This document shows positions 17,567 to 44,226 of a stretch of DNA of 64,000 nt, in pieces. Within the stretch, counting starts at the first letter, position 1. Every line of letters starts with the position of its first letter. The notes beneath the pieces are model-generated. The model did not search any database. It was given only the letters and a program-made list of their open reading frames with translations, and was not told the origin of the DNA. The translations under genes were made by a program, and so were the position numbers. The DNA comes from Gammaproteobacteria bacterium (GTDB taxonomy: Bacteria; Pseudomonadota; Gammaproteobacteria; Pseudomonadales; Halieaceae): positions 122,955 to 186,954 of the forward strand of contig JAUICG010000004.1 in the NCBI GenBank assembly GCA_030427485.1, written 5' to 3'.

Positions 17567-17673
17567 TTTTGAGCATGGTATTTTTCATGGTATTACCAAT
17601 TATCATGAAAGTAAGGCTATGATAATAAAAGAGAAAAAAGTCTTATTTATAATCGAGTGGGAGTGACCGGAAT
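17567..17673 (+). repeat. Island repeat element, copy A
   Basis: ttttGAGCATGGTATTTTTCATGGTATT - AT-rich ~55 nt - aagtcTTATTTATAATCGAGTGGGAGTGACCGG. It lies 283 nt upstream of the 1792-aa gene and just right of the IS3 remnant. Confidence 0.9.
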
Positions 17674-17955
17674 TGATGAATTTTGGTTGTTATTGATTTG
17701 CATTACTCGAATTTCAGGCTCTCAGCTCCCATCTAAATACTGCGCGTGGAAGCCCCAAGCCAAGGTACAGATTAGCGTTGTGTATCGTCTCGACAAGCGC
17801 ATTACGTTTTTGTCCACGCCGGTGTTTGGCCTATGCGAATATGAGCTGGTTCAAGAACCTTTCTGGGGCTACAGATTGGTGGTGACTTTGTGGGAGAATT
17901 GGTGAGTCAGTCAAACGGGCGCTAGTCGCTATCTACAGCATCTTGGAAATTAACG

Positions 17956-20900
17956 ATGACTTCGCCTGAACTTACCGGAGGCACCGGTTTTACCTACGAA
18001 GATGCTGTTGTGGCATACTACTTGGTGGCTCTCGTATCGGGGACAACTGCGGCAGGTCTTTCCTCTCGTGTGGTCGAGCGTGTTGCCCAGCAGCAAGCCG
18101 ACTTTGGTGAGCCGCTCGACGACGTCATCGTTGATGCAACCGGGCTAGCCGACGACTCGACAATGAGATTGTCACTACAAGTCAAACGTTCGCTCACGAT
18201 TTCCGATGCGGCTAGCAACACTGACTTCCGTGATGTTATGCAGCGGAGTTGGCAAACGTTACAGAAGTCGGACTTTCGCGAAAACCTTGATAGAGTGGGC
18301 GGGGTCGTGGGCACAGTCTCAGATGAGGCTTTTCGCAATTTCACGACCGTGTGTGAGTGGGCTCGCTCGTCCCAAACTACATCCTCTTTCCTCCAGCGCT
18401 TTGGTGATGGCGGCAACGCTTCTGCTGCTCACCGTGACGTGATTAACGCAGTGCGTAGTATTGCTCAAGAGTCAGCGGCGGGGCCTCTCTCCGATGGAAA
18501 CCTGCATCGGCTGTTTAGTCATCTAATCCTCGTGAAGTTGGATTTTCTGCATGAAGGGTCGACCGGCGAAGCAGACGTTCTGGCCGGGTTGCAGCGCGCA
18601 TTAGTGTCCAGTCAGTCAGGGCATGCGGCAGCGCTGTGGCAACAATTACGCCAGCTAGGGCGGGACGGTGCAGGACGCAGCGCGGAATTCACTCGCGCAT
18701 CGGTTCTCAGACAACTGACTGGCGGCATGAAGTTCGTCGGTACTCCGGCCCTTGCTGGTGACCTGCTGGTGTTGGCAGAGGGGGCCAGGCACTGGTTAGC
18801 GCAACAAGCCAATGACATCGGCGAAACCCATCTCGATCGAGCCGACTTGCGTACTAAGTTGGCCGCCGAGATGGCGGGTCATCGGCTGACCCTCATAAAG
18901 GGCCTGCCCGGGACCGGCAAGTCAGTTCTTCTGCGTGATCTACTTGCGGAGTACAACGCCGATGGATCCACATTGCTTCTGACTGCGAATAGACTCTCAG
19001 GTCGCAGTTGGGCTGAATATGCTAAAGCGATCGGACTGTCAACTGTGGCGATTGAGCCGCTCTTGGTCGAGATCGCCGCGACCGGTCACGCCTTGCTGTT
19101 GATTGACGGCTTGGATCGGATTCCTCCTGAGCAGCGACCAGTTGTTACTGACTTGCTAGGGCAGATTCTGTCGAATCCAGCGTTGGCCAATTGGCGAATC
19201 ATCGCAACCGCGCGCGACGCTGGGATTGAGCCGTTGCGGAACTGGGTGTCGCCAGTGCTTCTTTCGGGTGTGGGTGTCGGGTACGTAGATGTCAAAAACC
19301 TGACGGACGAGGAAGCGTCAACGCTCGCTGAGATGCTTCCGGCGCTGCGCGGTCTCCTGACAGAGGGCGACGATCGTGTTCGCGCTATTGCTCGACGGCC
19401 CTTTTTTGCAGCTGTCTTGGCTCGTGGGTTTGCCAAATCTACGTATTCAGCTGCGTTCGCGCCGCGATCCGAAGTGGATCTCATGGATGCTTGGTGGATG
19501 CGCGGAGGCCATGACGCACAGGATTCCCAGACACTGGCCCGGCAGCGTGCACTGATCGAGTTAGCGCAGCATGGCGCACCTGAACTTGGCCGTAATATAC
19601 GCATCCGTGATCTAACGTCAGCTACGCAGGGCGTTCTTCCGGCACTGGAGGAAGACGGGCTGGTACAGCAGGTTCGGCAGGGTCACACAGCGCAGTTCAG
19701 TCATGACATTTTCTTCGAGTGGTCGTACTACCATCTGCTGCTGGACCAAGGAGACGCGTGGATCAAAGCGTTGACGGACGCGGGTGAGCCGCCGGCGTTA
19801 GCGCGGGTCGTGGAGCTGTTGTCCCAAGCCACGTATGTCGACTCTGATGAATGGGTACATAGCGTGAAGACGCTGCAGGATGCAACGGTACGCCCGCAGT
19901 GGTTGAGAGCTTGGTTGATTGCGCCGATCTTTAGCCCGGACTTTAACGAGCGAGCTGAGATTTACGCATCGACATTGTCTGAGGACAACCACAGGTTGTT
20001 CGGCAAGCTCCTGGTTTGGATACAGGCCGAGAAGACAACACCCAATCCGGCGGTCTTGTCGGGCCAACTGGGGGGAACCAATGATATGCAGGCCGCCGCG
20101 CGCATTCGCCTTGCGGATGCGCTGGGTTGGCCTTCCGACTTTGCTGCGTGGCGCCGGTTGCTCCATTGGGCGCTGGATCATCTAGCAGCAGTCCCCGATC
20201 AATACTTGCCGGATCTCGTGACGCTGTTTGAGACGTGGCAGGTGGCTGTTGCGGACATCGCGAATCCAGTTTCTGAGAGGATTGTTCAGCAGTGCGCCAC
20301 GTGGCTGCACGCCATAGAAGATGAGAAGCAGTCTCGCCGATGGCGGCATAGCATAGACGATGTCGCTGCAGAGGAGCGGGAGCGCGTTCCCACCAATCTG
20401 GAAACTGAGCTACGCAGCTTGGTACTCAGGGCAGCGCGCGCCTACCCTGACGTGGTTAGCACCTACCTTACCAAGATTGAGACCATCGAACGACTGTCAG
20501 AGTCGGCTTTCCGTGAGGTGATGGGCTACGCACCCTTGCTGGCACAGACACATGCGGAGCTCCTAACACTGGTGGCCCGTCGCACTCTGATGAAAGAGCT
20601 ACCGGATGACATAGTGGTGCGCTGGCGCGACGAAGACCGGGAGGAGGGTCGCCATCGTGCGGAGGCCAGGGCGCTTCCCGAGGATCAGCGGACGCCTTTG
20701 GATGAGCTGATGCTAGCCAGCCCAATGTTTCCAAATTCGTTGTCGGACCACGATAGGCGCCGCTTATCGATCGGTGGCGACCATCAAGGCTATTTTCCAC
20801 CATCACCACTGCGTGAGCCATTTCACTCGCTGCTGATTCACGAGCCCGAGGTTGGACTAGTTCTCATACGCGACATGGCGAACCACGCTACGACGGCTTG

Positions 20901-23334
20901 GCATCAGTTTCATCACCATATGCAAGGCGAGGGTAGCCCCTTACCACTATCACTGGAGTTTCCGTGGGGCTGTCAGGACTTTTGGGGCACTGCACTTCAG
21001 TATCAATGGTTCCGCGGACATGGTGGGCCGCAAGCGCTAGAGTGCGCCTTGATGGCGCTTGAGCGCTGGGCGCTCAATCAACTGGATGAAGGGCGTTCAA
21101 CAGCCGAAGTTTTACAGCAGTTATTGGAAGGACATTCTAGTGTTGCCATTCTGGGCATCGCCGTGCATGTGGCCCTGCGGACTCAGGAAGTATCCGCAGT
21201 AACGTTGGCGCTGCTTGGCAGTCAGAGACTTTGGCGCTATGACCTCCAGCGGTGTGTACAAGAGTCGCAATTTCGAAGTGCAGGGCTTATTGGGTTTAAT
21301 CAAGATAATACCGAGATCACGCATCGTGAGGCCGTCATCAATGCCGGCGCTTTGGAGTCTCGTGGCTGGGAGTTGCGTTCTTTGGTTCCTCTATTTGTAC
21401 TTAGGGGTAACGAGCATTTGCGCGCTGCCTGCCGTAGTGCGCTCGAGCGATTTCCAGCAGAGTTACAGTTTGATTACGAAGAGGAGGAACAGGACGAAAA
21501 CCACGTAGCCGAACTGCGGCGGACGGCCGAGTTGTGGGCCGAGTGGGGCCGTGCCGAGAATTACGAAACTTCGGCGGTGCCAGGACGAGACGACGTGGTC
21601 GCGATTGAGCTCCGCAATCCGCGACATTCCTCTCCCGAGGTACAGGAGGCGCTACAGCGCCACGATCAGGTTTCTCAAGAAATAGAGCTTTGGCTCTGGG
21701 TTGTAAAGTGCTTCGAGTCACGCGAGTGGGCACCGGGATTTTCGCCGAGTGAAGCCGTTGAGCGAGCAAGTTCGATGTTTCTGGCTGTGGGGCAAGCAGA
21801 GTCATTGCTGCCTGATAGTGCCATCGCGCATGGCGCAATCGCCGGAACTGCGGCCGCGATTTACTGTTTCTCAGATGCGGAAGACCATAAAGCCTGGGCC
21901 GACGCTACCATAATAGCGTACATGGAAGAGTCGGATGAAGATGCGGGCGATGTGTTCTCGGGGTCGATAGTCTCGTGGCATCCCAAGATTTTTGTGGCTC
22001 ATGCCTTGGCCGCTCGCGTTCGAAGCGGCGGCGCCAGCTCGAGCGACCGTCAGGATCTCTACCAGCTTGTAACCCATCCGCTTGAAGTAGTTTCCTTTGC
22101 TGCCATCGAGGGGATCGCGAAATGCTGGAGACAGGATCAGCGTTTCGCTTGGTGTGGCTTTAACTTGGGTCTGCGTTTGGCGCAGTATAGGCATACGCAA
22201 GATGCGCACACTCTGAGCGCGACGGCCCGCCGAGAGGCGGAGGAATTACGTAGAAACGACGCTCTCACTGAAGCATGTCGAGAGTATGAATCCGAGGGGG
22301 ATCTTCCAACCTGGGTGCGGCCGCATCCGTCTTGGACACAGGATTCCTCCACCCGCAGGCACTACAGGGCCGATGAGGACGACGGTTGGCATCGCTGCGA
22401 TGATACCTGGCTCAGCGATTATGCAGCGAAAGTTTTGCATCTGGTTCCAGTGGTCGATGTCATGGGTAGTGCAGCAAGAAGCCAGTATGTCGGTGCGCTG
22501 GAGGCATTTGTTGCGTGGACGCTAGACACGCTCAACCCGGCGTGGCGAACGGAGCGTCGACGTGGTCGCGAACGTGATGGCGCCGGTTTGTATGAGTGGC
22601 AGGATGAGCTGGGGCGATTGATCGCACGAGTTGCGCCGCACCTACCTGCGGCAGAGGTGCGGGAGAAGTTGTTAGACCCCATTCTGGATCAGCCTGACGA
22701 GATTGCGATGCAACTACTACGTCCCTTTACCATAGCCATCACTTGCTCGGAAATCTTGGACTCGCCGGTGATCACGGATGACACGTTGGAGTTACTTCAG
22801 GCTGTGTTGGATCGTACGCTGCAACACCGTGACTTGTACCGATCGAGCTACAACAATGGGAGGATCAGTGGCTTCGACCTGCCTGACTTGATTAAGTCTT
22901 TGTTGTTTGTATTTGTGGAGCGTGCGGATATGGCGGCGCGATTCGCGAATGGAAACTGGAGCGACCTCCCACGGGTGTTGCCGCTAGTGGACAAAATGGT
23001 CCGGCAAGCTGGCTGGATCCCCTACATTGCGAGACAGTTTGTCACTCTCTGCGAAAGAGCAGGAGCCGACTATCCTGCGGACGTTCTCTCGGAACAGATC
23101 CTGGCACAGATTGAAGATGGAAACTTACCTTCGGGGTGGAAGGGAACGGGCATACCAGCATCGATTGCCGGAATTGTCCAAACGCATGCCGACCGACTAC
23201 ATCCTTTACCAGTTGAGTTGGCTCAAAAACTGTTACATATCTTAGATGCTCTTGTTGACCTCGGGGACCGTCGCAGCGCCGCACTTCAGTCAAGCGAATC
23301 ATTTCGTGGCGTGCGTCTACCGAGCGGCGCCTAG
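17956..23334 (+). CDS. Giant (1792 aa) NLR/STAND-like protein: Cap4/DUF4297-like PD-(D/E)xK nuclease N-domain + NACHT-like P-loop NTPase + ~1300-aa helical C-terminal region
   Basis: The N-terminus TGGTGFTYEDAVVAYYLVALV...PLDDVIVD...MRLSLQVKRS matches the GF.YQ...D...QxK pattern of Cap4-type nucleases. Walker A is LIKGLPGTGKSVLL (~18901-18924). Walker B is ALLLIDGLDRI (~19093-19116), as in NACHT modules. The rest is all-helical with no further recognisable motif. Confidence 0.75.
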   Translation: MTSPELTGGTGFTYEDAVVAYYLVALVSGTTAAGLSSRVVERVAQQQADFGEPLDDVIVDATGLADDSTMRLSLQVKRSLTISDAASNTDFRDVMQRSWQTLQKSDFRENLDRVGGVVGTVSDEAFRNFTTVCEWARSSQTTSSFLQRFGDGGNASAAHRDVINAVRSIAQESAAGPLSDGNLHRLFSHLILVKLDFLHEGSTGEADVLAGLQRALVSSQSGHAAALWQQLRQLGRDGAGRSAEFTRASVLRQLTGGMKFVGTPALAGDLLVLAEGARHWLAQQANDIGETHLDRADLRTKLAAEMAGHRLTLIKGLPGTGKSVLLRDLLAEYNADGSTLLLTANRLSGRSWAEYAKAIGLSTVAIEPLLVEIAATGHALLLIDGLDRIPPEQRPVVTDLLGQILSNPALANWRIIATARDAGIEPLRNWVSPVLLSGVGVGYVDVKNLTDEEASTLAEMLPALRGLLTEGDDRVRAIARRPFFAAVLARGFAKSTYSAAFAPRSEVDLMDAWWMRGGHDAQDSQTLARQRALIELAQHGAPELGRNIRIRDLTSATQGVLPALEEDGLVQQVRQGHTAQFSHDIFFEWSYYHLLLDQGDAWIKALTDAGEPPALARVVELLSQATYVDSDEWVHSVKTLQDATVRPQWLRAWLIAPIFSPDFNERAEIYASTLSEDNHRLFGKLLVWIQAEKTTPNPAVLSGQLGGTNDMQAAARIRLADALGWPSDFAAWRRLLHWALDHLAAVPDQYLPDLVTLFETWQVAVADIANPVSERIVQQCATWLHAIEDEKQSRRWRHSIDDVAAEERERVPTNLETELRSLVLRAARAYPDVVSTYLTKIETIERLSESAFREVMGYAPLLAQTHAELLTLVARRTLMKELPDDIVVRWRDEDREEGRHRAEARALPEDQRTPLDELMLASPMFPNSLSDHDRRRLSIGGDHQGYFPPSPLREPFHSLLIHEPEVGLVLIRDMANHATTAWHQFHHHMQGEGSPLPLSLEFPWGCQDFWGTALQYQWFRGHGGPQALECALMALERWALNQLDEGRSTAEVLQQLLEGHSSVAILGIAVHVALRTQEVSAVTLALLGSQRLWRYDLQRCVQESQFRSAGLIGFNQDNTEITHREAVINAGALESRGWELRSLVPLFVLRGNEHLRAACRSALERFPAELQFDYEEEEQDENHVAELRRTAELWAEWGRAENYETSAVPGRDDVVAIELRNPRHSSPEVQEALQRHDQVSQEIELWLWVVKCFESREWAPGFSPSEAVERASSMFLAVGQAESLLPDSAIAHGAIAGTAAAIYCFSDAEDHKAWADATIIAYMEESDEDAGDVFSGSIVSWHPKIFVAHALAARVRSGGASSSDRQDLYQLVTHPLEVVSFAAIEGIAKCWRQDQRFAWCGFNLGLRLAQYRHTQDAHTLSATARREAEELRRNDALTEACREYESEGDLPTWVRPHPSWTQDSSTRRHYRADEDDGWHRCDDTWLSDYAAKVLHLVPVVDVMGSAARSQYVGALEAFVAWTLDTLNPAWRTERRRGRERDGAGLYEWQDELGRLIARVAPHLPAAEVREKLLDPILDQPDEIAMQLLRPFTIAITCSEILDSPVITDDTLELLQAVLDRTLQHRDLYRSSYNNGRISGFDLPDLIKSLLFVFVERADMAARFANGNWSDLPRVLPLVDKMVRQAGWIPYIARQFVTLCERAGADYPADVLSEQILAQIEDGNLPSGWKGTGIPASIAGIVQTHADRLHPLPVELAQKLLHILDALVDLGDRRSAALQSSESFRGVRLPSGA

Positions 23335-23456
23335 AAGGTTGAAAACTTGTAGGGTAACTTGATTGGCCTTAAAGCGGCCGGGGTGCCTAGATTCAGACAG
23401 GGAATAATTAAGGTGTCGGAAATATGTATATATAATTCGGACTTTTGGCTTGCTGA

Positions 23457-23488
23457 ATGTCCGAAATAATGGTACAAATTTCGGACAT
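23457..23488. promoter_or_regulatory. Inverted-repeat operator candidate abutting the abiEi start
   Basis: ATGTCCGAAAT-aatggtacaa-ATTTCGGACAT (11-bp perfect arms). Related TCGGA half-sites occur at 23415-23419 and 23437-23441. The right arm ends in the probable abiEi ATG (23487). Confidence 0.5.
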
Positions 23489-24140
23489 GAGAGACACTAC
23501 ATCAGACTTGAAGACTGCGATCTTGGCGCGTATCGAAAACGGTGTGCAGCAAGGGGTCTGGACGCCACGAGATTTCCTCGATCTTGGCGCGCGCGATGCC
23601 GTTGACAAAACACTGCAGAGGCTGACACGCTCTGGAATTTTGCGGCGAGTCGATCGTGGTCTTTACGACAAGCCCTTACTCAATAGCCTGACACAACAGA
23701 GCAGTCCCCCCGATCCAAGACATGTCATTGATGCGATTGCTCGGCGAGATCAGGTTCGTGTACTTGTCGATGGCATGACCGCGGCAAATGATCTTGGGCT
23801 GACGAATGCGGTTCCTGCGAAGGTTGTTGTGCATACCGATGCGCGGCTCAAACCAATCTCGCTCGGCCAAATGGAAATCATCTTCAAGCCAACGGCTGCA
23901 AGCAAGTTATATTGGGCCGGGAGGCCGGCAATGCGCATCGTTCAGGCGCTGCATTGGTTGCGAGATACCATGGGCCAGGGAGATGAAGACGAGATATTGA
24001 TCCGTCGCCTGAACGCAATTCTTCATGATCAGGATGATGGCCGAATGCTTCGAGCGGATTTGTCTGAGGGCCTGCCGACACTGCCGAGCTGGATGCAGAG
24101 TTTGCTGAACCCGATGCTAAAAGAGCAGGTTAGCTCATGA
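23487..24140 (+). CDS. abiEi: AbiEi-type (DUF6088-like) type IV TA antitoxin / transcriptional regulator
   Basis: The track ORF starts at 23457, and I prefer the in-frame ATG at 23487 (MRDTTSDLKTAILARIENG...). ...WTPRDFLDLGARDAVDKTLQRLTRSGILRRVDRGLYDKP... is the wHTH signature of AbiEi-like antitoxins. The stop overlaps the abiEii start (ATGA). Confidence 0.75.
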   Translation: MRDTTSDLKTAILARIENGVQQGVWTPRDFLDLGARDAVDKTLQRLTRSGILRRVDRGLYDKPLLNSLTQQSSPPDPRHVIDAIARRDQVRVLVDGMTAANDLGLTNAVPAKVVVHTDARLKPISLGQMEIIFKPTAASKLYWAGRPAMRIVQALHWLRDTMGQGDEDEILIRRLNAILHDQDDGRMLRADLSEGLPTLPSWMQSLLNPMLKEQVSS

Positions 24141-25233
24141 TGAATCCTGAATTCGATCAGATTATGTCAGCGGACCACGAGACGCGGTTGGGTCTTTTTA
24201 CGACAACGGCTCAGCGTTTGGGAACCACTGCCCAGAATGTCGAAAAGGACTTCTGGGTTTGCTGGACTCTCGATGCGCTTTTCAATGGATTGCAAGACAG
24301 ACCCCGGCTGCTGTTCAAGGGTGGCACATCGCTCTCCAAAGGATATGGACTGATAAAACGATTCTCAGAAGATATCGACGTTACGGTATTCCGTGACGCT
24401 CTGGGAGAAGCGGCTTCAATTGAAGAGCTAAAAGCACTCAGCGGTAAGAAACGTGGCAAGGCTCTGGATGACATCAAGGCAGCCTGCGAGACTTACATCA
24501 ACGGACCGTGCTTAGCTGGACTTTCAGCGATCGTTAGCGAAGTAGCGAAGTAGCGAATCGCAATGGATTCAACAAAAGCCAATTTTTCGTCGAGCCAGAT
24601 CCTGAAGACAATCAGGCTCTATATCTGCGCTACCCGACCGCGACGCCTGTCGACACCTATATCACCAAGACGGTAAAAATAGAGTCGGGCGCCAAATCGG
24701 CCCTCGATCCCAACTCCAAACGCATCATCCGACCATATCTAGAAGACGATGTCCCTGGTATCGATCTGTCTGTCGGCAATGTTACAACAGTCGATGCGCA
24801 ACGAACCTTCTGGGACAAGGTTGTGATCCTGCATGGGCTTCGGCGCTGGTTCGATATCCGCGGTGAGCTCAAAGGGGATGGCCAGCCCGTATCGCGCCAC
24901 TATTATGATGCTTGCCAGCTATTGGCATCGCCGGTCGGGCAAAAGGCGCTGCAGGATCGCGAACTGGGCGCCGACTGCGTCGCACATGCCCGCATGTTCT
25001 TCAACCGTCCTGCCTTCGATCTCGCGACAGCAGTGGCGCCCACATTTGCCATTCGTCCGGAAGGAAAGGTGCTCGACGACCTTCGGCGCGACTATCGCGC
25101 CATGTCGGGCATGATCTTCGGCAAAGCTCCCGCGTTCGAAGCGATTATCGAGGACATAGCCGTGCTTGAGACAGCGCTGAACGCACAACCGACAGAGGGC
25201 GCTTCAGAGGCTGGCGGCCAGGGGCATGGCTAA
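24137..25233 (+). pseudogene. abiEii: AbiEii/AbiGii-family nucleotidyltransferase toxin (DUF1814), disrupted by an 8-bp tandem repeat expansion
   Basis: The N-terminal part (24137-24553) contains FKGGTSLSKGYGLIKRFSEDIDVTVF, the NTase GS...DxD motif. The frame stops at TAG 24551-24553. The rest continues stop-free in the frame of track ORF 24823-25233 from 24559 (RNGFNKSQFFVEPDPEDNQALYLRYP...). Deleting one 8-nt unit restores a 362-aa ORF. Confidence 0.8.
24535..24558 (+). repeat. 8-bp tandem repeat x3 inside abiEii
   Basis: TAGCGAAG TAGCGAAG TAGCGAAT. The third unit supplies the premature TAG. Confidence 0.95.
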
Positions 25234-29116: not shown

Positions 29117-29123
29117 GCTAGAT

Positions 29124-29230
29124 TTTTTGATCATGGTATTTTTCATGGTATTTCGTTTTTGGTAAAATGTAACTAATTGAAAAATAAGTAATATAAATGG
29201 CTATTTACAATCGAGTGGGAGTGACCGGAA
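29124..29230 (+). repeat. Island repeat element, copy B
   Basis: ttttttGATCATGGTATTTTTCATGGTATT - AT-rich - aatggCTATTTACAATCGAGTGGGAGTGACCGGAA. It starts 8 nt after the 1296-aa gene stop and ends 130 nt upstream of 29360. Confidence 0.9.
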
Positions 29231-33071: not shown

Positions 33072-33072
33072 C

Positions 33073-33354
33073 ATGAGCAAACACATTGGTAGTAACTTCG
33101 ATGACTTTCTGGAAGAGGAAGGTGTGCTTGCGGAAGCGGAAGCTATCGCAGTTAAGCGTGTGCTTGCCTTTCAACTCGAGGAATTGATGAAAGCGCATAA
33201 ACTCAACAAGACACAACTGGCCAGGCGGATGAATACCAGCCGTTCCGCATTGGAGCGGTTGCTGGATCCCGAGAATCCTTCGGTGACGCTGCTGACCCTG
33301 GAGCGCGCGGCCAGAGCGCTGGGCAAGAACATAAGGATTGAGCTCGCAGTTTGA
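33073..33354 (+). CDS. XRE-family HTH antitoxin
   Basis: The in-frame ATG at 33073 lies 2 nt after the toxin stop. The product MSKHIGSNFDDFLEEEG...LNKTQLARRMNTSRSALERLLDPENPSVTLLTLERAARALGKNIRIEL contains an HTH_XRE. Confidence 0.85.
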   Translation: MSKHIGSNFDDFLEEEGVLAEAEAIAVKRVLAFQLEELMKAHKLNKTQLARRMNTSRSALERLLDPENPSVTLLTLERAARALGKNIRIELAV

Positions 33355-33445
33355 GGTATGAGGCACCTGTTTGTCTGATGTTCAGTATAGAGGCGAACGC
33401 CAGTGAACGTTGTGAACTGTTCAATGCACTGTTTATGAGGGTCTG

Positions 33446-34906: not shown

Positions 34907-34909
34907 CCT

Positions 34910-35677: not shown

Positions 35678-38600
35678 ATCGACGAACTACAGCCGCGATT
35701 TTTTTGCCATAGGGCAGATTCGTCTCAGCGAGTTGTCCGTGTACAACTGGGGGTCGTTTCACGGTCTGCACAGCGCCCGCATCGACCCGGAGGGCACCTT
35801 GGTCACCGGCGATAACGGTTCTGGAAAATCGACCTATATCGACGCCCTGATGGCGCTGTTACTGCCCGCGGGCAAGGCGAGCTTCAATGTCGCGGCCGCG
35901 CAAGGCGACAAGGCGGATCGCTCTTTGCTGTCGTACATGCGCGGCAGTTTCGGTTCCGCGCACGATGGCGCTGCCACGCGCGTCAAGAGCAAGCGCGAGG
36001 GCGCAGTGGTCACCGCGCTGAGGGCCGCTTACCGCGCCGATGACGGCAGCGAGCTGACACTGCTGGCGATGTTCTGGACCACCCAGGCGAGCAATGCGCT
36101 GGCGGACGTCAAACGTGTGTACGCGGTGGCGCGTAGGAATGTCGGCTTGAAGTCCGTTCTCGATGCCTTCGGCGAGGGTAATGCGCGGGCGCTCAAACAA
36201 TGGCTGCGCGCCGATCAGGCGATTACCTGCTGCGACGAGAATTTTGCCGAATACCAGGAGTTGTATCGCAAGCTGCTGATGATGGAGAACCGCAACGCGC
36301 CGGCCTTGCTGTCACGTGCCCTCGGCTTGAAAAAGATCGATGACCTGACCGCGCTGATCCGCGAACTGGTGCTGGAGCCCAGTGGCGTCCGGGACGATGC
36401 ACGTAAGGTGGTTGCCGAGTTCGCCGACCTGGTGGCGATACATGCGCAGTTACTCGACGCTCGGCAGCAGCAGGCACACCTCGCCAGATTGCCGGAGTTG
36501 AAAGACGTGATCGACAAAGCGGAAACCGAAATCCGGTTGTTGAGCGAGGAAAAGCAGGGCCTGCCGGTGTATTTCGGCGAGTTGCTGGTCGCTTTGTTGT
36601 CCGAGCGGATCGCAGGGTTGGACGCGCAGCGGCAGGATCTGAAACTCGACATCAAACAGCGGGAACAGGCAAGGGAGGATGCGAACCGATTGGTTGAACG
36701 TCGGCACGAAGTGTATCTGCAGCTCGGCGGCGATCGGGTCGAATCGCTCAACAAGGAGCTGGAGCACACCCGGGAACGACTGAAGTTCGTCACTACTGAG
36801 TCATCCCGCTATCAACGAGCTGCCCGTGAACTGGAATGGTCCGATGCCCTGGAAGCGTCAGTGTTCCAGCAAAGTCAGGCATCGGCGGAGCAGGGCTTGG
36901 TATCCATCGAGAACGATACCAAGGCAAGTCAGGACCGCTTCGCTGAAGTCAGCGCGCAGTTGAGCGCAACGCAAGCGGAGATCAGGACAACCACCGATGA
37001 GATCGCCGAAATCACCGCACGGCCCGGTTCGAATATTCATATCGCCTATCAGCGCTTGCGTGACGAGCTGGTCGACTCGCTCGGCCTGCCTGCCGGGGAC
37101 TGCCTGTTCATCGGCGAATTACTCGATGTCAGGGACGAAGAGCGGTCGTGGCAGGGGGCCATCGAACGCGCCCTGGGTGGTTTGCGTACCACACTTGCAG
37201 TGCCTGAACAAAGTTTCTCGATGGTCACCAAATGGCTGAATGCGCGGCATACCGGCCTGCATGTTCGGGTTCAGGTGGTGCGGGAATCGAAGGTCAAAGC
37301 GCCGATGCCCGAGTTTCGCCCCGATGGTTTTCTGCGCAAGCTGGAGTGGCGGCAGCATCGTTATCGGGAGTGGCTGAAACAGCATTTGCAGCGCTTTGAC
37401 CTGTCCTGCGTTGCGGATACCGCGACGTTGGATGCCACACCCTTTTCCATGACGCGAGAAGGCCTGATCCACAAGGAAAAAGGGCGTTTCGAGAAAAAGG
37501 ATCTGGCGCGCATCGACGATCGTAACGAATGGCAACTTGGATTTTCCAATGCGTCGCGTTTGAAACTGTTGAACGAGCACCTGGCGAAACTGAATACACG
37601 TCTGACTGTGGAAAATGGCCAGGTGGACCAGGCGCGTGCGGACTGGGATCGATTTGGCAAACGCAAAAACCTGTTGCAACGGATCAGGGAAACAGAGTGG
37701 GAGAGTATCGACGCGCCTTACTGGAACGGCCGGCTGGCGCAATTGGACGACGAACTGAAGCGACTGCAATCCTCCAGTGGCGACCTGGAGGAGGCTCGCA
37801 AGGGGTGGGAGGCTGCCAAACAGGCGTTGCAGGATATATCGGATGCGATCATCGAACTGGCCCGTCAGCGCGGCGCCATCGAAAGTGAGCTGGCCGCTGC
37901 CCGAGCCCGCAAAAGCGAGGCGGTGGCAGAAGCGGAAAAAGGGCTTTCCGATACCTGCCGTGCAGCGCTCGTCGGGCGGGTCAGAACGATTTTAATCGAG
38001 GATCTCGAACGGGTATCCGCGATCATGTTCGACATCGAACGCGACCTGGACGGATTGCTGGCCCGGGCGCGTAACGACCAGAGTCAGGCGGAAAACTCCG
38101 CAATCGGTGTCATGTCCTCGTTTCGAGGTAAGGATCGCTGGCAGTCGTTGACCGCGGACTGGCCCGCGGGTCTGGCCGGTCTGACGGATTTCCTCGATCA
38201 CCTCGAGCGACTGGTCAGCGAGGGCTTGCCAGCGCTGGTAGAGCAATTCGTCGAACGGCTCAACAGACATGCCACACAGTCACTGGCACGGATCAAATCA
38301 CGCCTGGACAGCGAGCGCGAAGACATACTCGAGCGCATCGATGTCATCAACCAGGTCCTGGCGCGTACCGAGTTCAGACAGGGCTCTTACCTGAAGCTGG
38401 GATCGCGCCGGGAAAAATACCCGCATGTGCAGGATTTCGAGAAGCAGTTGAATCTGGTGCTGAGCCAGGTTACCAGCGATGATCATGAGGGACGTTTCCA
38501 GCAACTTGAAACGGTGGTGGCGATACTGGAAAAGGCCAGCACAGTCGGCACGGCCAGCACGCTCGAAAGCCTGCGTCTGCTCGATCCCCGCTATCAACTT

Positions 38601-39083
38601 TCGTTCTTTGCCGAGGAAGTCGGCTTCGAAGACGGCGAAACGCGTGACGTGCTGGATTCCTCCAGTGGAAAATCCGGCGGCGAAAAGGAATCCTTCGCCG
38701 GCACCATCGTCGCCGCGAGCCTGGCTTACGTGCTGACCCCCGAGGGACATGACCGGCCGGTATATTGTACCGTGTTCCTCGACGAGGCTTTTTCCAACAC
38801 CGCCGAGGCGGTCAGTCGCCGGGTATTGAAGGTCTTCAAGGCCCTGCATATCCATGTGAACCTGATTACCCCGTACAAGAACCTGAATCTGGCGCGGGAT
38901 TCGGCCCGTGCCTTATTGATTGCAGAACGCGATGCGGAGCGGCACGAAAGCCATCTGTGCGAAATCACCTGGGAGGAGGTGGACCGGCGTCTGGGTGAGC
39001 AGCGGGAGGTGAAACTGGCAGATGATCTGCTGCGGCTGGATATCGAAATTGAAAACCGTCCCGGAATGACCAGCGATGTCTGA
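35670..39083 (+). CDS. jetC: Wadjet JetC (SMC/MksF-like ABC ATPase)
   Basis: The ATG at 35670 overlaps the jetB stop (ATGACTGA); the track ORF starts at 35604. Walker A is VTGDNGSGKSTYIDAL. A long coiled-coil middle follows. The C-terminal signature/Walker B region is SSGKSGGEKESFAG...YCTVFLDEAFS. Confidence 0.9.
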   Translation: MTESTNYSRDFFAIGQIRLSELSVYNWGSFHGLHSARIDPEGTLVTGDNGSGKSTYIDALMALLLPAGKASFNVAAAQGDKADRSLLSYMRGSFGSAHDGAATRVKSKREGAVVTALRAAYRADDGSELTLLAMFWTTQASNALADVKRVYAVARRNVGLKSVLDAFGEGNARALKQWLRADQAITCCDENFAEYQELYRKLLMMENRNAPALLSRALGLKKIDDLTALIRELVLEPSGVRDDARKVVAEFADLVAIHAQLLDARQQQAHLARLPELKDVIDKAETEIRLLSEEKQGLPVYFGELLVALLSERIAGLDAQRQDLKLDIKQREQAREDANRLVERRHEVYLQLGGDRVESLNKELEHTRERLKFVTTESSRYQRAARELEWSDALEASVFQQSQASAEQGLVSIENDTKASQDRFAEVSAQLSATQAEIRTTTDEIAEITARPGSNIHIAYQRLRDELVDSLGLPAGDCLFIGELLDVRDEERSWQGAIERALGGLRTTLAVPEQSFSMVTKWLNARHTGLHVRVQVVRESKVKAPMPEFRPDGFLRKLEWRQHRYREWLKQHLQRFDLSCVADTATLDATPFSMTREGLIHKEKGRFEKKDLARIDDRNEWQLGFSNASRLKLLNEHLAKLNTRLTVENGQVDQARADWDRFGKRKNLLQRIRETEWESIDAPYWNGRLAQLDDELKRLQSSSGDLEEARKGWEAAKQALQDISDAIIELARQRGAIESELAAARARKSEAVAEAEKGLSDTCRAALVGRVRTILIEDLERVSAIMFDIERDLDGLLARARNDQSQAENSAIGVMSSFRGKDRWQSLTADWPAGLAGLTDFLDHLERLVSEGLPALVEQFVERLNRHATQSLARIKSRLDSEREDILERIDVINQVLARTEFRQGSYLKLGSRREKYPHVQDFEKQLNLVLSQVTSDDHEGRFQQLETVVAILEKASTVGTASTLESLRLLDPRYQLSFFAEEVGFEDGETRDVLDSSSGKSGGEKESFAGTIVAASLAYVLTPEGHDRPVYCTVFLDEAFSNTAEAVSRRVLKVFKALHIHVNLITPYKNLNLARDSARALLIAERDAERHESHLCEITWEEVDRRLGEQREVKLADDLLRLDIEIENRPGMTSDV

Positions 39084-40290
39084 GCCGGAAGCTGCCACGT
39101 GGGGCATCATGCCGGAACAGGCCGCGGCTCAGGCACGCAAAAGGTACTGGGACAATCGCCCGGTTTTGAAAGCCTTGATGACCGGTGAGCGCGGTTTCCC
39201 GCTACATATCCCGCTGAAGCCGCCCAACGCCAGACAACCCTTGGAGAATCTGGCTCATCTGCGGGATTGGATCGAAGTCTGGAAAAAGTTCACCATGCCG
39301 GACCTTCTGCACTGGAAAACGGTCAGTTTTCGCCAATTGGGCCAACAGCGACTGCCCGCGCGAATCACCATCGGCAACTTCCAGCAGCTCACGCAACTCT
39401 GCGGTCCGTCCGCGAACGCGCAATCCGCGCGATGGCAGGCGAATATGCTCCCGCTGCTACGGCAGTATCCACATGAGCGGGTCTATCCTGTTCTAGTCAG
39501 GCACATCGAGGCCGTTGAAAGTCTTGGTAGGAATGATGCTGAATTACTCACCCATGTATTGCCGCAGTTGCATCGAGGGCTCGGCGCGGGTGGTTACCTG
39601 CGTGCGCTACCATTGCAGGGTGCCGATACCAAGTTTGTCGAAACATGTTCGGGCCTGATCGAAGCACTACTGGATGCGGTGCATGATGGAGAGATCACAG
39701 CGTCCGGCGGCCTGTATTCCTGGCTGGATTGCATCCACCTCCCCAGAGGGCTTGCCCAGGGCGTACCGGTGGTACGTCCTCTGAGTGCGGATACGCGGCA
39801 TGCTTATCAGGGTTTGTCGCTGTTTCAGTTGAGCGCGGAATTGCTGCGGCAACATGCACTGCCGGCTGCCAACATCCTGGTGGTGGAGAATCTTCAATCG
39901 GGTCTGGCCTTGCCCGATCTTGACGATACCATTGCCGTGATCGGCGGGGGGCGGAACGTTAGCTGGATGAATGCGTCCTGGTTGACGGCGAAACGTGTCG
40001 GTTACTGGGGCGATATCGACAGCTGGGGGCTATCCATATTGAGTGATGCTCGCACCAGTCTGGCCTCAGTGGAGCCATTGATGATGGATGTTACTACGCT
40101 AAATGCGCACGAAGAGCGGATGGTGCAGGAACCCGAACCGTTGAACACGCTACCCGCACAGTTGACCGGTCAGGAACAGCAATTGTTCCTTGATCTCGCA
40201 GCCGGCCGGTTCCTTTCTACCCGTTTGGAACAGGAAAGGATTTCATCCGATTTTATCAGCGCTGCACTCGAAACCTGGTTAGTATCCTAG
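39076..40290 (+). CDS. jetD: Wadjet JetD (DUF3322 + DUF2220 Toprim-like nuclease subunit)
   Basis: 404 aa. It overlaps the jetC stop by 8 nt. The C-terminal NILVVENLQSGLALP...IGGGRNVSW...VGYWGDIDSWGLSILSDAR is the Toprim/DUF2220 signature. Confidence 0.88.
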   Translation: MSEPEAATWGIMPEQAAAQARKRYWDNRPVLKALMTGERGFPLHIPLKPPNARQPLENLAHLRDWIEVWKKFTMPDLLHWKTVSFRQLGQQRLPARITIGNFQQLTQLCGPSANAQSARWQANMLPLLRQYPHERVYPVLVRHIEAVESLGRNDAELLTHVLPQLHRGLGAGGYLRALPLQGADTKFVETCSGLIEALLDAVHDGEITASGGLYSWLDCIHLPRGLAQGVPVVRPLSADTRHAYQGLSLFQLSAELLRQHALPAANILVVENLQSGLALPDLDDTIAVIGGGRNVSWMNASWLTAKRVGYWGDIDSWGLSILSDARTSLASVEPLMMDVTTLNAHEERMVQEPEPLNTLPAQLTGQEQQLFLDLAAGRFLSTRLEQERISSDFISAALETWLVS

Positions 40291-40317: not shown

Positions 40318-41961
40318 TCAATCCTGCCGGTGATCCGATACCAGAAGGAGTTGGAAGGGATTCTGATGGCCGTCTTGTCTCTCAGGGGTAGCTGTAAGGC
40401 CGAGAACGTATCGTGCTCGAACTTCGTTCAGTACCATCTCAACGCGCGGCGCGGATACGTGGTGGCATTCGTCAACGATTACATGGCCGTATTCCTGAAT
40501 AATCTGAGAAACAGTGTTTTCTTTCTTGTTTATCAAACTTTGATATGTCGCTATATCAATGTTGCCGGTGGGCTTTTTCTTTCCCCCGCGGATGACGCCA
40601 ATCTCCGCTTCTGGTAAAAACGAATGCAGTCTAGCCTGCCATTGAGCAAGTAATTGGCGACTGTGTACAAGAATGAGCGTGTTTACTTTGCGCTTGGTGA
40701 TCATTCCGATAGCCGTCACTGTTTTCCCGAACGCTGTAGGTGCATGCAGGATTCCTGCATCGTACTTGCTCATTTCCTTTATGGCGGCTTGTTGATTTTT
40801 CCTCAAAGCTAATAACGGCTTCATACTTGAAAGTTTTATGCCCAACTCACGCTTGTCATCGATTTGAACGTCTATATTGTTCTCTTTCAATAGCGCGAGC
40901 GCATCATCCAAACACCCTCTGGGCAATGCCAGGTAGCCACGTTCAATGCGAGCACAGGAAATGAATCGAGGAATGCCGTGGGTCAAAAAGCGAAGCGCCT
41001 GTGTCTTAAAGAAAACCGGATTTGAAAAGCTGGCTAAACGCCTTAATCTCGCTAAAAGAGCACTTGGTAGTGCCTTTGCCTCAAAGTAGATGTGGTTGGC
41101 CAGCGTTATCGTAATCTGTTGTGGCGGGCTGTCCAGAATCAGAGGTTTGGGTTTGGCTGTCACCTCCCAGGGCGGCAGGATATCGGTAACGTCCTGCTTT
41201 GAAATCAGGCTTTCATTGGGGGAAATCTTTGAAAGAAGTTGATTTAGCTCCTGTCTGGAAAGTTTCTTTATCTGTGAGAGGTGTTGCCATTGATCCTTAA
41301 TGACATTCAAATCTGCATCGACAGAAAAGCTATTGCCCGTGTGTCTGGCTTCGCGCTGTAGTGGTAATGCAATCAAATTGCCAAATCCTCCTTCAGGCAG
41401 AATATCCTGATTAGGAAATAATCTGTCATAGGAGTTGAAAGACAGGTTCGGATAAATCTACATCGCTTTTACTTCGTCTTGCCAGCTTCCTTTATCAAAA
41501 TCGGCGGCCAACAAATAGCATGTGTTGTTGTGGAGCAATGGATACAGGCCCACAACCTGTTGTCCCGCCAGGTGGCGATAGATGATTTGATCGGTTGATT
41601 CGCTGAACTGGCGGTGTGTGCAGTCAAGACATTTGATCCTCGGTTTGTTGCAGACACCCTGAACCCACTCATTGTCACAGGCTACGGAATAGCCACTTCG
41701 TCCTCGCTGGTTTTCCCAGCGATTGGCAAAAATATCAGTGCGCCCACGAAACAGATTTCTGAAAACTGCTATCTTTTGTTCCGGAGAAAAGGAATCTGAA
41801 ATGGGCGGTGCTGGCCTCGATTCTTGCAGTTCTGCTCTGAGCGTGATGAGCTGCTACTTTTCTCGTTCAAGCTCAACCAGCCTCGAATCGATAACGGAGA
41901 GATCAGGAAATTTATCTCCGCTGCCGCGTAGCTTCTCTTCGGTTGGAGAGCGATCAGGCAT
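40318..41961 (-). pseudogene. Degraded archaeo-eukaryotic-primase (AEP) + SF2 DEAD/DEAH helicase fusion gene (TOTE-conflict-system-like)
   Basis: One frame of 548 codons carries two internal TAG stops (41856-41854 and 41460-41458). The N-terminal part reads ...EQKIAVFRNLFRGRTDIFANRWENQRGRSGYSVACDNEWVQGVCNKPRIKCLDCTHRQF...GLYPLLHNNTCYLLAADFDKGSW, then SYDRLFPNQDILPEGGFGNLIALPLQ. Helicase motifs are HAPTAFGKTV and VIVDECHH...LTATPERQDG. The frame then ends, so helicase motifs IV-VI are absent. Confidence 0.75.
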
Positions 41962-42322
41962 GAACCTGAGGTGGTTTGATCAGCGACTCAGCCGGAATAC
42001 CCAAACCTTCGTGGAGCTTCCAGATCATCTTTAAAGTCAGCGAGCGCTTGTGATTTAGGATCTCGTAAACGCGATTACTTTTGCCGATCATCGGCTCCAG
42101 GTCTTTTACGGTTAAGCCCTTGCGTTCCATCTCGAACTTGATTGCCTCAACAGGATCGGGCAAATCCATCGGGAAATGCTTGGCTTCATAAGCCTCAATA
42201 AGCGTGACCATGACATCCAGCTTTTCGCCTTCTGGAGTGTCTGGTTCAGCCATCATCAGGCTTTCAACTTCATTTAATGCCGCGCGGTAGTCGGCATCAG
42301 TTTTAATGGGTTTGATGTCCAT
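41954..42322 (-). CDS. higA: HigA-type HTH antitoxin
   Basis: 122 aa. ...DADYRAALNEVESLM...EAIKFEMERKGLTVKDLEPMIGKSNRVYEILNHKRSLTLKMIWKLHEGLGIPAESLI contains an XRE HTH. Its stop overlaps the pseudogene ATG (ATGCCTGA). Confidence 0.85.
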   Translation of the reverse strand: MDIKPIKTDADYRAALNEVESLMMAEPDTPEGEKLDVMVTLIEAYEAKHFPMDLPDPVEAIKFEMERKGLTVKDLEPMIGKSNRVYEILNHKRSLTLKMIWKLHEGLGIPAESLIKPPQVHA

Positions 42323-42339
42323 GATTGATCCTCCGGCAG

Positions 42340-42642
42340 TTAAATGGTTTGTACATCAATCTTGTCGTACTGCATATGGGTGCCAATAAAGCGGATGTAG
42401 ACAACTCGGTAGGCATAGTTGATCCACACGACAAGTCGATACTTGTTCCCCGCGATATTGAAAACCACTCGGCCATCTTTAAGGATGCTGGCATTTCCAA
42501 AGTCCTGCTTTACCTCGGCAGGCGAACTCCAGTCGGCTTGCAAGGCATGACGGTACCAGGCCAAAGTTGGCTCCTTTGCATCCTGATATTCCGGGTTCTC
42601 TTCCCAGAAGGCTTTCAGGGTCGACAGTGCGATGATTCTCAT
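42340..42642 (-). CDS. higB: HigB-type mRNA-interferase toxin
   Basis: The in-frame ATG at 42642 gives MRIIALSTLKAFWEENPEYQDAKEPTLAWYRHALQADWSSPAEVKQDFGNASILKDGRVVFNIAGNKYRLVVWINYAYRVVYIRFIGTHMQYDKIDV, the classic HigB_toxin family sequence. Confidence 0.88.
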   Translation of the reverse strand: MRIIALSTLKAFWEENPEYQDAKEPTLAWYRHALQADWSSPAEVKQDFGNASILKDGRVVFNIAGNKYRLVVWINYAYRVVYIRFIGTHMQYDKIDVQTI

Positions 42643-42805
42643 GTGTCCGATATAATAGTCCCAAAATGGGACTATAGCAACAGCTTTTTTGGTCAAGCGC
42701 AGATTTGGATAACACCATCAACCTGTATATCCTCTTGAAATAGCGTTCGAATGAGACATCGAGTGCTTACGAATTTGTGGAAAAAATGAGCTCATTTCAA
42801 GAAAC

Positions 42806-42826
42806 TTCTGAGCATGGTATTTTTCA
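42806..42826 (+). repeat. Island repeat element, copy E (21-nt stub)
   Basis: TTCTGAGCATGGTATTTTTCA is identical to the first 21 nt of copy D (44121-44141). Similarity ends exactly between the two ATGGTAT units. Confidence 0.8.
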
Positions 42827-42902
42827 AACGACGTTCAGATGCCAGTATTTTATCCAGGCTGGCGTTATTGCCGGCCATAATCGCGCCATATATATGTATT
42901 AT

Positions 42903-42933
42903 ATGGCGTGAATAAGTACTAGAATCACGCCAT
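42903..42933. promoter_or_regulatory. Palindrome overlapping the fic paralog 2 start
   Basis: ATGGCGTGA-N13-TCACGCCAT with 9-bp perfect arms. The right arm ends in ATG 42932. Confidence 0.4.
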
Positions 42934-44076
42934 GAGATGGATATGGCAACAATCTGATTGGCCTGGTTTCCGCTACGACGAGCTTCCTCTCGAACACAGG
43001 GAACTTGAGTTTCGCCTGAACTCAGAGCGTCTGGCGGGTAGCTTTGATGCACTTCCTCAAGCGTCCCAGGCGGAGGCCATGATCGATTTGATGCTTTCCG
43101 AGGCCATCAAAACCAGCGCCATTGAGGGCGAGAATCTGGACAGAGAGTCGGTCAGGTCATCGCTGCTCTCATTAATTACCTCGGATACGCTGCCGGATAA
43201 CTCAGACCAGAAAGCGGCGGGAGCTGCATCGTTGCTGGTGGACGTTCGCAAGAACTGGCAAACATCCCTGTCGCATGACCTGCTGGGCAAGTGGCAGTCC
43301 ATGGCTATCCCGGAACAGCGCTACACGCCTGTTGTGAGAGGTGCATACCGCAATGATCCTTCACCAATGCAAATCGTGAGCGGGCCTTACGGAAGCGAAA
43401 AGGTTCACTATGAGGCCCCACCAGCGGCCCGGGTGCCTGATGAAATGGTGAAGTTTATCGAATGGTACAACCAATCCAGTCCCTTGAATGGGGATAAGAC
43501 AATACCCGGGATTGCCCGAGCAGGTATTGCTCATCTCTGGTTCGAAGTGATTCACCCCTTCGATGATGGTAATGGTCGGGTTGGCAGGGCGATCGCTGAC
43601 CATGCACTTTCGCAGTCGCTCGGCTATCCAACCACGGCTTGTCTGGCTACAGCAATAGAGGGGGAAAAAAATCCTATTATCTGCAACTGGAGAAAGCGAG
43701 TCGTGGAAGCCAGGATATTAACGCCTGGCTGGATTATTTCGCAGACACAATCATCAAGGCACAGGAAATTGCCAGAGATGAAGTGAATTTTGTACTGGCT
43801 AAGACACGTTTCTACGAAGCTTACGGCGATCATCTGAATGAACGGCAGGCGAAGATGGTATCTCGGGTGTTCGCTGAAGGACGAACAGGCTTTGAAGGCG
43901 GAATAACGACCAGAAAATATGAAGTCATCACCAGGTGCCCCAATCGAACAGCCAGCCGTGATCTTTCTGATCTGGTTGCCAAAGGTATAATCATACCGTT
44001 ACCAGGTGGTGGTAGAACAACGCGATATGAGTTGACGATTGTTAAACCGGTTCGGTCTGGTCCGACGAAGAAGTAA
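42932..44076 (+). pseudogene. Fic/DOC family protein paralog 2, frameshifted in a G5A7 tract
   Basis: Track ORFs 42932-43786 and 43639-44076 are the two halves. Most residues are identical to paralog 1 by eye, including HPFDDGNGRVGRA. At 43660-43671 (GGGGGAAAAAAA), adding one A restores ...IEGEKKSYYLQLEKA..., colinear with ...IEADKKTYYLQLEKA... in paralog 1. Confidence 0.85.
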
Positions 44077-44118
44077 GTTACCCTGTGGGTCGTTGATTTT
44101 TTGTGTCGATTAGCAGGA

Positions 44119-44226
44119 TTTTCTGAGCATGGTATTTTTCATGGTATTACGATTTAGCAGAGTAATAAGCCACTGTATCTAAGAGACAAAAATGGCCTAT
44201 TTACAATCGAGCGGGAGCGAGCGGCA
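44119..44226 (+). repeat. Island repeat element, copy D
   Basis: ttTTCTGAGCATGGTATTTTTCATGGTATT - AT-rich - aatggCCTATTTACAATCGAGCGGGAGCGAGCGG. It lies 43 nt after the fic-2 stop and 146 nt upstream of the TPR-Fic gene. Confidence 0.9.

Follow-up and report, generated by a model that had tools for sequence, protein, structure and literature searches.

Repeats that divide a defence island of a Halieaceae bacterium probably represent attachment sites of guaA-targeting integrase islands and separate integrase-less cassettes

The genomic island GIsul2 occupies the 3' end of guaA, and its tyrosine integrase, Int(GIsul2), was shown experimentally to recombine attL, attLR and attR, 19-bp sites which share the core GAGTGGGA (PMC9376610). 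According to the same source, recombination at these sites requires Int together with the att sites, and Int(GIsul2) moves not only GIsul2 itself but also the CR2-sul2 unit, which has no integrase of its own. The site family, its core, guaA as the target and the mobilisation in trans of an integrase-less unit are already described in PMC9376610. Furthermore, guaA-linked elements and islands that are rich in immune systems have been reported (bioRxiv 10.64898/2026.01.12.698999; PMC11680222), and the concepts of tandem accretion and of cis-mobilizable elements (CIMEs) are well established (PMC5704250). Here, we analysed a stretch of 64,000 nt from a gammaproteobacterium of the family Halieaceae (assembly GCA_030427485.1, contig JAUICG010000004.1, positions 122,955 to 186,954; referred to as the window), in which copies of a short element in the same orientation divide a defence island into gene modules. 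These copies very probably are the distal arm and core of attachment sites of tyrosine-integrase islands that target the guaA 3' end (GIsul2, the CR2-sul2 unit, the IncP island and PIMEs), and would accordingly have been made by site-specific recombination.

Alignment and a repeat finder identified four full copies of the element, A to D, and one stub, E, in the window, all of them on the + strand. The number and orientation agree with a first-pass annotation of this DNA, which had been made from the sequence alone and had described five same-orientation copies of about 105 nt; they are equally borne out by nhmmer with a profile (armR) that was built from other genomes only and that matched exactly the five copies and nothing else in the 64 kb (E values of 8.7e-34 for A, 1.8e-32 for D, 1.7e-30 for C, 5.7e-27 for B and 1e-6 for E). 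The extent given at first (A 17567-17673, B 29124-29230, C 32251-32347, D 44119-44226 and stub E ending at 42826, + strand) turned out to be too short, as the conserved element covers 17550-17704 in A, 32234-32395 in C and 42790-42826 in E, and weaker homology of copy A reaches back to 17395 in an alignment to locus L039 (loci used for comparison are cited by number). Each site has an AT-rich spacer of about 55 nt, and two ATGGTAT units are located at -80 and -68 from every core, with a period of 12 nt. With up to two mismatches allowed, the 13-mer ATGGTATTTTTCA was found five times in the window, each time as an exact match, where 1.0 occurrence would be expected, and 0 of 100 shuffles reached five. 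Similarly, the heptamers ATGGTAT/ATACCAT are found 17 times against 5.6 expected, and 12 of them sit at the five sites at fixed offsets. Neither Rfam at gathering thresholds nor tRNA scans gave a match anywhere in the window.

The anatomy of the sites is best followed from A, where the distal arm (arm1, 17550..17651, + strand, as for all sites) bears ATGGTAT at 17575 and 17587, is 83.6% identical to the sul2-ISCR2 spacer and is followed by an exact ATCGAGTGGGAGTGA core (17652..17666), which contains GAGTGGGA and mimics the I-E-W-E-stop end of guaA. Site B is built in the same way, with arm1 at 29121..29209 (ATGGTAT at 29133 and 29145) and an exact ATCGAGTGGGAGTGA core at 29210..29224. In site C, arm1 (32234..32333; ATGGTAT at 32257 and 32269) leads to the core ATCGAGTGGAAGTAG (32334..32348), which has three mismatches to ATCGAGTGGGAGTGA, one of them inside GAGTGGGA (giving GAGTGGAA), and in site D, arm1 (44107..44205; ATGGTAT at 44129 and 44141) leads to the core ATCGAGCGGGAGCGA (44206..44220) with two mismatches, again one of them inside GAGTGGGA (giving GAGCGGGA). 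The published core is thus exact in A and B and carries a single substitution in each of C and D. At site E (42790..42826), arm1 is cut within the conserved 19-mer described below and is joined to a partial proximal arm of the following fic2 cassette, and the core is lost; a comparable core-less hybrid was recovered by alignment at position 6404 of L070.

The 3' block of the element, ACA-ATC-GAG-TGG-GAG-TGA, reads Thr-Ile-Glu-Trp-Glu-stop, which mimics the guaA C-terminus and contains the published core. Accordingly, the -10-like hexamer (TACAAT, TATAAT or GATAAT) that had been noted in this block represents Thr/Ile-Ile codons of the mimic. This resembles the att sites of GIsul2 and CR2-sul2 (Harmer et al. 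2017; Zhang et al. 2022, PMC9376610), where the core GAGTGGGA is likewise embedded in a guaA-end mimic and accompanied by an arm of about 100 nt. In the reference plasmid locus L122, the att boundaries given in PMC9376610, 304 bp from sul2 and 119 bp from rcr2, coincide with the core of the element, and over about 100-137 nt (L122 3985/4001-4100/4137) the element shows 78-84% identity to the 304-bp region on the sul2 side. Blastn retrieved the element, at about 84% identity, from 3909 plasmids and from 1612 of the 5426 complete E. coli genomes (1764 E. coli records), and these copies sit between sul2 and rcr2, the gene of the IS91-family transposase of ISCR2/CR2. Also the downstream block that had been pointed out 3' of copies B and C is real. 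It is the post-core arm which precedes rcr2 in ISCR2 and matches the CR2 side of attLR (PMC9376610); after site B, this CR2-type arm (…ACAGGCAATGTCTGGGACTGGCAGGC; 29225..29264, + strand) is the equivalent of the ISCR2 terIS and aligns to L122 4100-4141. After site C, the proximal arm (arm2) extends over about 240 nt (32349..32590, + strand) and matches the arms that follow the core in L039, L112 and L106 with 77-78% identity. It begins with TGGCAC-type repeats and then carries three further ATGGTAT units at 32483 (+), 32532 (-) and 32559 (+), that is, at +146, +195 (inverted) and +222 from the core. TGGCAC/TGGCAT repeats right after the core were also observed at L122 4092-4141, at 29213-29264 and 32337-32460 of the window, and after the guaA stop in L124 and L132-L136. 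They recur in the ISCR2 'terIS', in copies B and C and in the int-proximal arm of integrase-bearing elements, and may constitute a second protein-binding module, either for a recombination directionality factor or as core-type sites.

Outside the window, the 19-mer ATGGTATTTTTCATGGTAT from arm1 was found in at least 119 loci of species-representative genomes, which belong mostly to Gammaproteobacteria and in some cases to other phyla; these loci were gathered by exact match to the 19-mer, and the counts that follow hold among the matches listed. Where a sequence has several copies (n=24, the window and 23 loci), they all lie on one strand, spaced by 161-164 nt or by 0.8-6 kb. Two classes of sites can be told apart: in the first (n=86), to which the window copies belong, the 19-mer is followed by 82 nt and the core, and in the second (n=35) the core is followed by 81 nt and the 19-mer. 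About 20 sites of the second class are located directly 3' of an open reading frame (ORF) that ends in ...KPPATIEWE* exactly at the core, with tails ...TIEWE or ...IIEWE. Fifteen of the ORFs ending in KPPATIEWE* could be read for at least 150 aa, being mostly 520-580 aa long, and the one that was run through Pfam is a GMP synthase (GATase + GMP_synt_C). The remaining second-class sites come after a first-class copy, and the 'pairs' at 161-164 nt therefore are arm1-core-arm2 junctions. Clustering of the ORFs of these loci placed guaA in 25 of them and a probable guaB in 16, both on the strand of the sites, and the deaminase gene tadA forms the distal flank in seven. The order is complete in E. 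coli HKUOPY1, which reads xseA-guaB-guaA / tyrosine integrase - AlpA-like helix-turn-helix (HTH) protein - RepA ... TrbJ/L, TraI ... sul2 - element / yfgI. When sites were found via their 3' part only, 59 of 72 had the exact 19-mer and 13 differed from it by one to few changes; judged from these sequences, the 19-mer is strongly conserved but not invariant. A search in relatives had been proposed in order to see whether the element bounds variable cargo and whether a recombinase is linked to it. Integrases appear only beside the clinical sul2-type copies and in canonical elements. In Sedimenticola selenatireducens (L127 11273-15900), a 4.6-kb metabolic cassette (LigB, GST, DoxX, dehydrogenase, LysR) is located between two sites of the same kind, indicating that the cargo is not limited to defence genes.

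Comparisons between four genomes, and between the loci of three strains, place the breakpoints of the cassettes at the core. One fic cassette (82-88% nt identity) precedes four different sequences in four genomes, and the similarity stops at the 3' edge of the core; that of the D-side fic cassette to three other fic cassettes stops at 44216-44220. The segment 40361-42826, which encodes a PrimPol-helicase, is 78-88% identical at the nucleotide level to L026, L049, L072, L115 and L119, forms the guaA-proximal cassette in L026, L049 and L072, and its alignments to L026, L115, L119 and L084 end at 42826, inside the 19-mer of stub E. The Fic protein encoded by fic1 has an aa identity of 85% to that of L048. 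At the nucleotide level, fic1 is 81-85% identical to 12 loci and, when its arm is counted in, 81-88% identical to the Fic cassettes of no fewer than 12 other arrays; hundreds of homologues of 84-89% identity occur across genera. The two fic genes of the window are 79-82% identical to each other, whereas cassettes of other genomes reach up to about 85% for fic1 and about 88% for fic2. As each of them is closer to cassettes of other genomes than to its neighbour, fic1 and fic2 are likely to have been acquired independently.

Gain or loss of a single cassette is seen between L129, L130 and L131, which encode an identical Fic protein; L130 and L131 have a common xseA-guaB-guaA flank that is matched by L129. 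In L130 and L131, guaA is followed by Fic, whereas in L129 an insert of 3.39 kb comprising ParE-Phd and an ISCR-like rcr lies between the two. In their flanks, L129 and L130 agree to 98.7-99.4%, and the insert has the 13-nt core at either end, with different arms coming next. Presence or absence of single cassettes with breakpoints inside the element, which the first-pass annotation had suggested looking for in sister strains, is hence observed in these loci. The ISCR-like rcr of L129 is preceded by a degenerate core, AATCGAGTGCAGAG, and by a LexA-box-like sequence, CTGTATAGAAACACAA, with one mismatch to CTGT-N8-ACAG (L129 7540-7582). This arrangement resembles the SOS-regulated Prcr2 of ISCR2 (PMC13393415).

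In canonical elements, the arm between guaA and int contains ATACCATG at about +172/+190 and CATGGTAT at +217 and +286 from the core, the unit at +286 being located about 30 nt before the int start codon, and the integrases comprise Arm-DNA-bind_3 and Phage_integrase domains. The arm2 units of copy C at +195(-) and +222 match those at +190(-) and +217 of the integrase-bearing elements. Because the same units occur beside the int gene of canonical members, the ATGGTAT units are probably arm-type sites for the N-terminal arm-binding domain of the integrase. The E. coli-type integrase always adjoins guaA in the members that were examined and is unusually well preserved, with 87-95% identity among alpha-, beta- and gammaproteobacteria (Brucella with the 'IncP island', Xanthomonas, Paraburkholderia, Shewanella, Pseudomonas and Vibrio), which would account for the unusual conservation of the arm across taxa. 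A second integrase subfamily, about 55% identical to the E. coli type, has GACGGTAT/ATACCGTC units in a similar layout in its own arm (L116 500-720; L002, minus strand). The unit sequence thus tracks the integrase subfamily, as is expected of arm-type binding sites. An integrase of this second subfamily was also found directly downstream of a sul2 unit whose arm has ATGGTAT, suggesting that two types of element share one core.

Taken together, the window comprises at least five or six stacked cassettes without integrase, namely NACHT/AbiE, SEC-C, fic1, HigBA with Wadjet, a PrimPol-helicase remnant and fic2, with two eroded boundaries, one between SEC-C and fic1 and one at stub E. With regard to their assembly, each site would consist of the core of about 15 nt, ATCGAGTGGGAGTGA, made up of the last guaA codons and the stop with GAGTGGGA as the crossover region, a spacer and the two ATGGTAT units. 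A circular element with arm1-core-arm2 could then recombine with any core already present, and repeated events would stack cassettes head to tail, leaving arm1-core after each of them. It might further be hypothesized that the guaA stop serves as an active, integron-like platform that is widespread in environmental Gammaproteobacteria, rather than as a place of mere decayed islands, and that small integrase-less arm-core-arm cassettes are shuffled there in trans by the conserved IncP-island/GIsul2-type integrase of mobilizable elements. The cassettes meant here encode Fic, HipA, ParE, DUF4143/PDC-S01 or PrimPol-helicase proteins and sometimes large defence systems. We offer this wider proposal tentatively and would rate its chances at somewhat less than even. 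If it holds true, ISCR2/CR2 would be one cargo among such cassettes and its 'terIS' an att site.

Several observations weigh against these proposals. The array of the window is not demonstrably at the canonical site, since neither guaA and tadA nor genes for a tyrosine integrase or AlpA were detected by tblastn and Pfam, whether in the window or in the adjoining 9 kb on the left (L123, from the same genome and 100% identical over 11.5 kb), and the Sedimenticola selenatireducens array in L127 is not adjacent to guaA either. In about 95 environmental loci, no integrase was detected at distances of up to 8-20 kb from the sites, and none was found in the 20-kb contexts of L125, L127 and L129. With the cores of C and D substituted, and with E and the SEC-C/fic1 boundary core-less, part of the array is fossil. 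The apparent invariance of the 19-mer is inflated by the gathering of the loci through exact matches, and our literature searches found no experiment on binding of the integrase to ATGGTAT. A Pfam scan of 125 ORFs of 300-460 aa from environmental loci yielded no recurrent integrase family, and the 19-mer-bearing proximal arm of the environmental arrays had no match in E. coli genomes or plasmids, so that this route provides no link to an annotated integrase. Action in trans is thus an inference: an integrase of the E. coli/IncP-island type might have moved the cassettes of the window, and the sites of the window might still be competent for recombination.

The first-pass annotation had offered two readings of the repeats. 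In the first, they would be a shared promoter or operator that places the defence modules under common regulation, with a regulator bound to ATGGTAT and TACAAT as the -10 box. All five copies are indeed located upstream of + strand genes in the window, the GAGCATGGTAT(T) unit about 30 nt before the int start of canonical elements could act as an operator there, and one weak promoter match is present inside copy B (TTTTCA-17-TAAAAT). However, no predicted sigma-70-type promoter in A, B or D relies on the hexamer TACAAT/TATAAT, and the hexamer is explained by the ACA/ATA-ATC codons of the guaA-end mimic. Moreover, the neighbouring cargo of other arrays often lies on the opposite strand (DUF4143 in 15 of 16 cases, ParE in 9 of 9 and PrimPol-helicase in 7 of 7), and sites are also found directly after guaA and directly before tadA. 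Common regulation is therefore very unlikely to be the reason for the repeats. By contrast, the second reading, in which they are reconstituted attachment sites left by serial insertion of cassettes, is supported by the att core, the arrays at guaA, the breakpoints at the core and the differences between strains. As a separate candidate, a sigma-54-type promoter at TGGCAC…TTGC after copy C was inspected by eye and dismissed, its spacing being one base short.

Two further explanations assume recombination or transposition of another kind. The repeats might be terIS ends of ISCR2/IS91-type rolling-circle elements that were left behind by repeated one-ended transposition; the element abuts rcr2, the proposed terIS GGGAGTGAC..GGCACTGGC overlaps the core (PMC13393415, PMC9376610), and Rcr homologues are present in about 10 environmental loci. 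Most arrays, however, are without rcr, and in the window, tblastn with Rcr2 detected no Rcr save for a 30-aa match (E=0.002), and no oriIS-like 15-mer was found at up to two mismatches. The folding of single-stranded DNA is inconspicuous on both strands (z from -1.6 to +0.8), and the copies share no conserved inverted repeat. The core reproduces the end of guaA, at which the arrays begin, and recombination was shown to need Int and att sites (PMC9376610). We consider this origin even less probable than common regulation. The 30-aa match (17260-17349, minus strand; 43% identical to residues 18-47 of the ISCR2 transposase) lies just upstream of copy A; it may be what is left of an ISCR, or the match may be due to chance. 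Least probable of all, in our view, is a generic dispersed repeat, such as a repetitive extragenic palindrome (REP) or a miniature inverted-repeat transposable element (MITE), or a local duplication with homologous recombination, without any role in cassette exchange. A duplication would carry C and D along with the diverged fic gene pair, and such an association was indeed indicated by the repeat finder; from the core-less hybrids (E and L070 6404) it is evident that repeats also undergo ordinary recombination or deletion among themselves. Against this, the window copies are confined to the island and, elsewhere, the element is linked to guaA or tadA, which is not the scatter irrespective of gene content that the first-pass annotation had associated with a REP/MITE; terminal inverted repeats are missing, the breakpoints fall at the core, and, as described, fic1 and fic2 each have nearer relatives in other genomes. 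Hence, attachment sites of guaA-targeting islands remain the explanation that we favour.

Among the closest described systems is the CR2-sul2 unit, which lacks an integrase, is flanked by an att site on either side and is mobilised by the integrase of another element (PMC9376610). The window differs from GIsul2 and CR2 in that its cargo consists of anti-phage and toxin-antitoxin genes instead of sul2/rcr2, in that at least five to six units stand in a row instead of one, and in its environmental host; integrase, guaA and rcr2 are all missing from it. ATGGTAT arm units and second conserved arm types are not described for GIsul2/CR2 in the accessible part of PMC9376610. The IncP island, BcenGI2 and PIMEs share with the site family seen in the window the guaA 3' end as attB, an integrase with an arm-binding domain and immune-system cargo (bioRxiv 10.64898/2026.01.12.698999; PMC5704250), and their int-proximal arm bears CATGGTAT/ATACCATG units at about +190/+217 from the core. 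These elements, however, measure 15-25 kb and carry int, alpA, replication and mobilisation genes, whereas the units of the window have none of them; many of the related cassettes found elsewhere comprise just one gene (0.9-3.4 kb). CIMEs and tandem accretion (Pavlovic 2004, Bellanger 2011, reviewed in PMC5704250) are similar in the lack of integration genes, the retention of attL and attR and the integration into a resident att. CIMEs have been described as decayed integrative and conjugative or integrative and mobilizable elements, while here many units resemble minimal cassettes, their arms being complete and conserved, and recur across genera.

Integrons, finally, resemble the arrays in the same orientation of promoter-poor and often single-gene cassettes (toxin-antitoxin, defence), in the recombination sites between them and in the use of one integrase. 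They differ in that the sites studied here are lambda-like arm-core-arm sites of about 300 nt and of conserved sequence, without attC palindrome or hairpin, in that the platform is the end of a housekeeping gene with no intI, attI or Pc adjacent, and in the mixed orientation of the cargo. The absence of attC-type symmetry and of an integrase in the window had already been stated in the first-pass annotation and was corroborated; an integron attC was dismissed for these reasons, namely the lack of hairpin potential (with the z-scores given above), of a conserved inverted repeat and of an integrase in the window. GTTRRRY is not visible in the consensus of the element, no search aimed at this motif having been made.

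Our literature searches retrieved neither multi-cassette, integrase-less arrays of defence and toxin-antitoxin genes in environmental bacteria nor the conserved arm architecture with ATGGTAT or minimal single-gene cassettes shared across genera; a search with the 19-mer led to no paper, and for such a search the 8-mer core is too unspecific. The attachment-site reading explains how the defence island was assembled and why its modules are bounded as they are, the units having been captured singly at a known integrase target and not forming a co-regulated regulon. Anti-phage and toxin-antitoxin cassettes from environmental bacteria are thereby connected with the very recombination system by which sul2 and tet(X) are spread with CR2 in clinical plasmids, and the published suggestion that the 'terIS' of ISCR2 is an att core gains support. 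If a trans-acting integrase is confirmed, the conserved junction of about 300 nt would offer a simple tag for mobile defence cassettes in metagenomes.

With respect to the cargo, Pfam and PADLOC confirmed the gene content of the modules that had been proposed around the copies, including a TPR-Fic module. The first cassette, between A and B (17667..29120, + strand), encodes a 1792-aa NACHT/Avs4-like protein, AbiE (DUF6088 and a split AbiEii) and a 1296-aa AAA_16 protein (Pfam, PADLOC). It is followed by the gene of a SEC-C/UPF0149 protein (29360..30820, + strand; Pfam) and by the eroded SEC-C/fic1 boundary (30896..30993, + strand), where a remnant of a Fic-type proximal arm and of the fic upstream region with GGCGTGA repeats is left and the 19-mer and core are lost; this remnant aligns with the Fic cassettes of L048, L119, L070 and L009. 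The fic1 gene (30994..32205, + strand; DUF4172 + Fic, SoFic-like, PADLOC SoFic) is an intact ORF of 403 aa. A HigB(Gp49)/HTH toxin-antitoxin pair and Wadjet JetABCD (32727..40290, + strand; Pfam) come next, the former without homology to the standalone Gp49/HTH cassette of L129. The truncated PrimPol(AEP-TOTE)-helicase cassette with two small ORFs (40318..42789, minus strand; Pfam, PADLOC) precedes the fic2 cassette (42827..44076, + strand), in which GGCGTGA repeats mark the partial proximal arm (42827-42931) and the fic gene, SoFic-like as is fic1, is frameshifted (42932-43786 and 43639-44076). Part of the cargo is decayed, as fic2 (42932-44076) is split into two overlapping ORFs and AbiEii (24137-25233) into two pieces, and the PrimPol(AEP-TOTE)-helicase (40318-41376) has 352 aa compared to 809 aa in L072. 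Between the arm and the fic start, GGCGTGA/TCACGCC repeats are conserved in all Fic cassettes (30930-30990 and 42870-42930 of the window; L048, L119, L070 and L009), and they probably represent an operator for the regulation of Fic.

The proteins encoded on the left and right flanks of the array showed only generic ABC/RND similarity when compared to all loci, and an exact-protein look-up with the DUF7275 gene on the right of the array gave no match. On the left (window 1-12000, L123), the array is preceded by a low-GC region (0.47-0.52) for copper/silver resistance with a CopA-type ATPase, CusCBA and CusRS, after which remnants of insertion sequences, among them an rve fragment at 16705-17160, are found.

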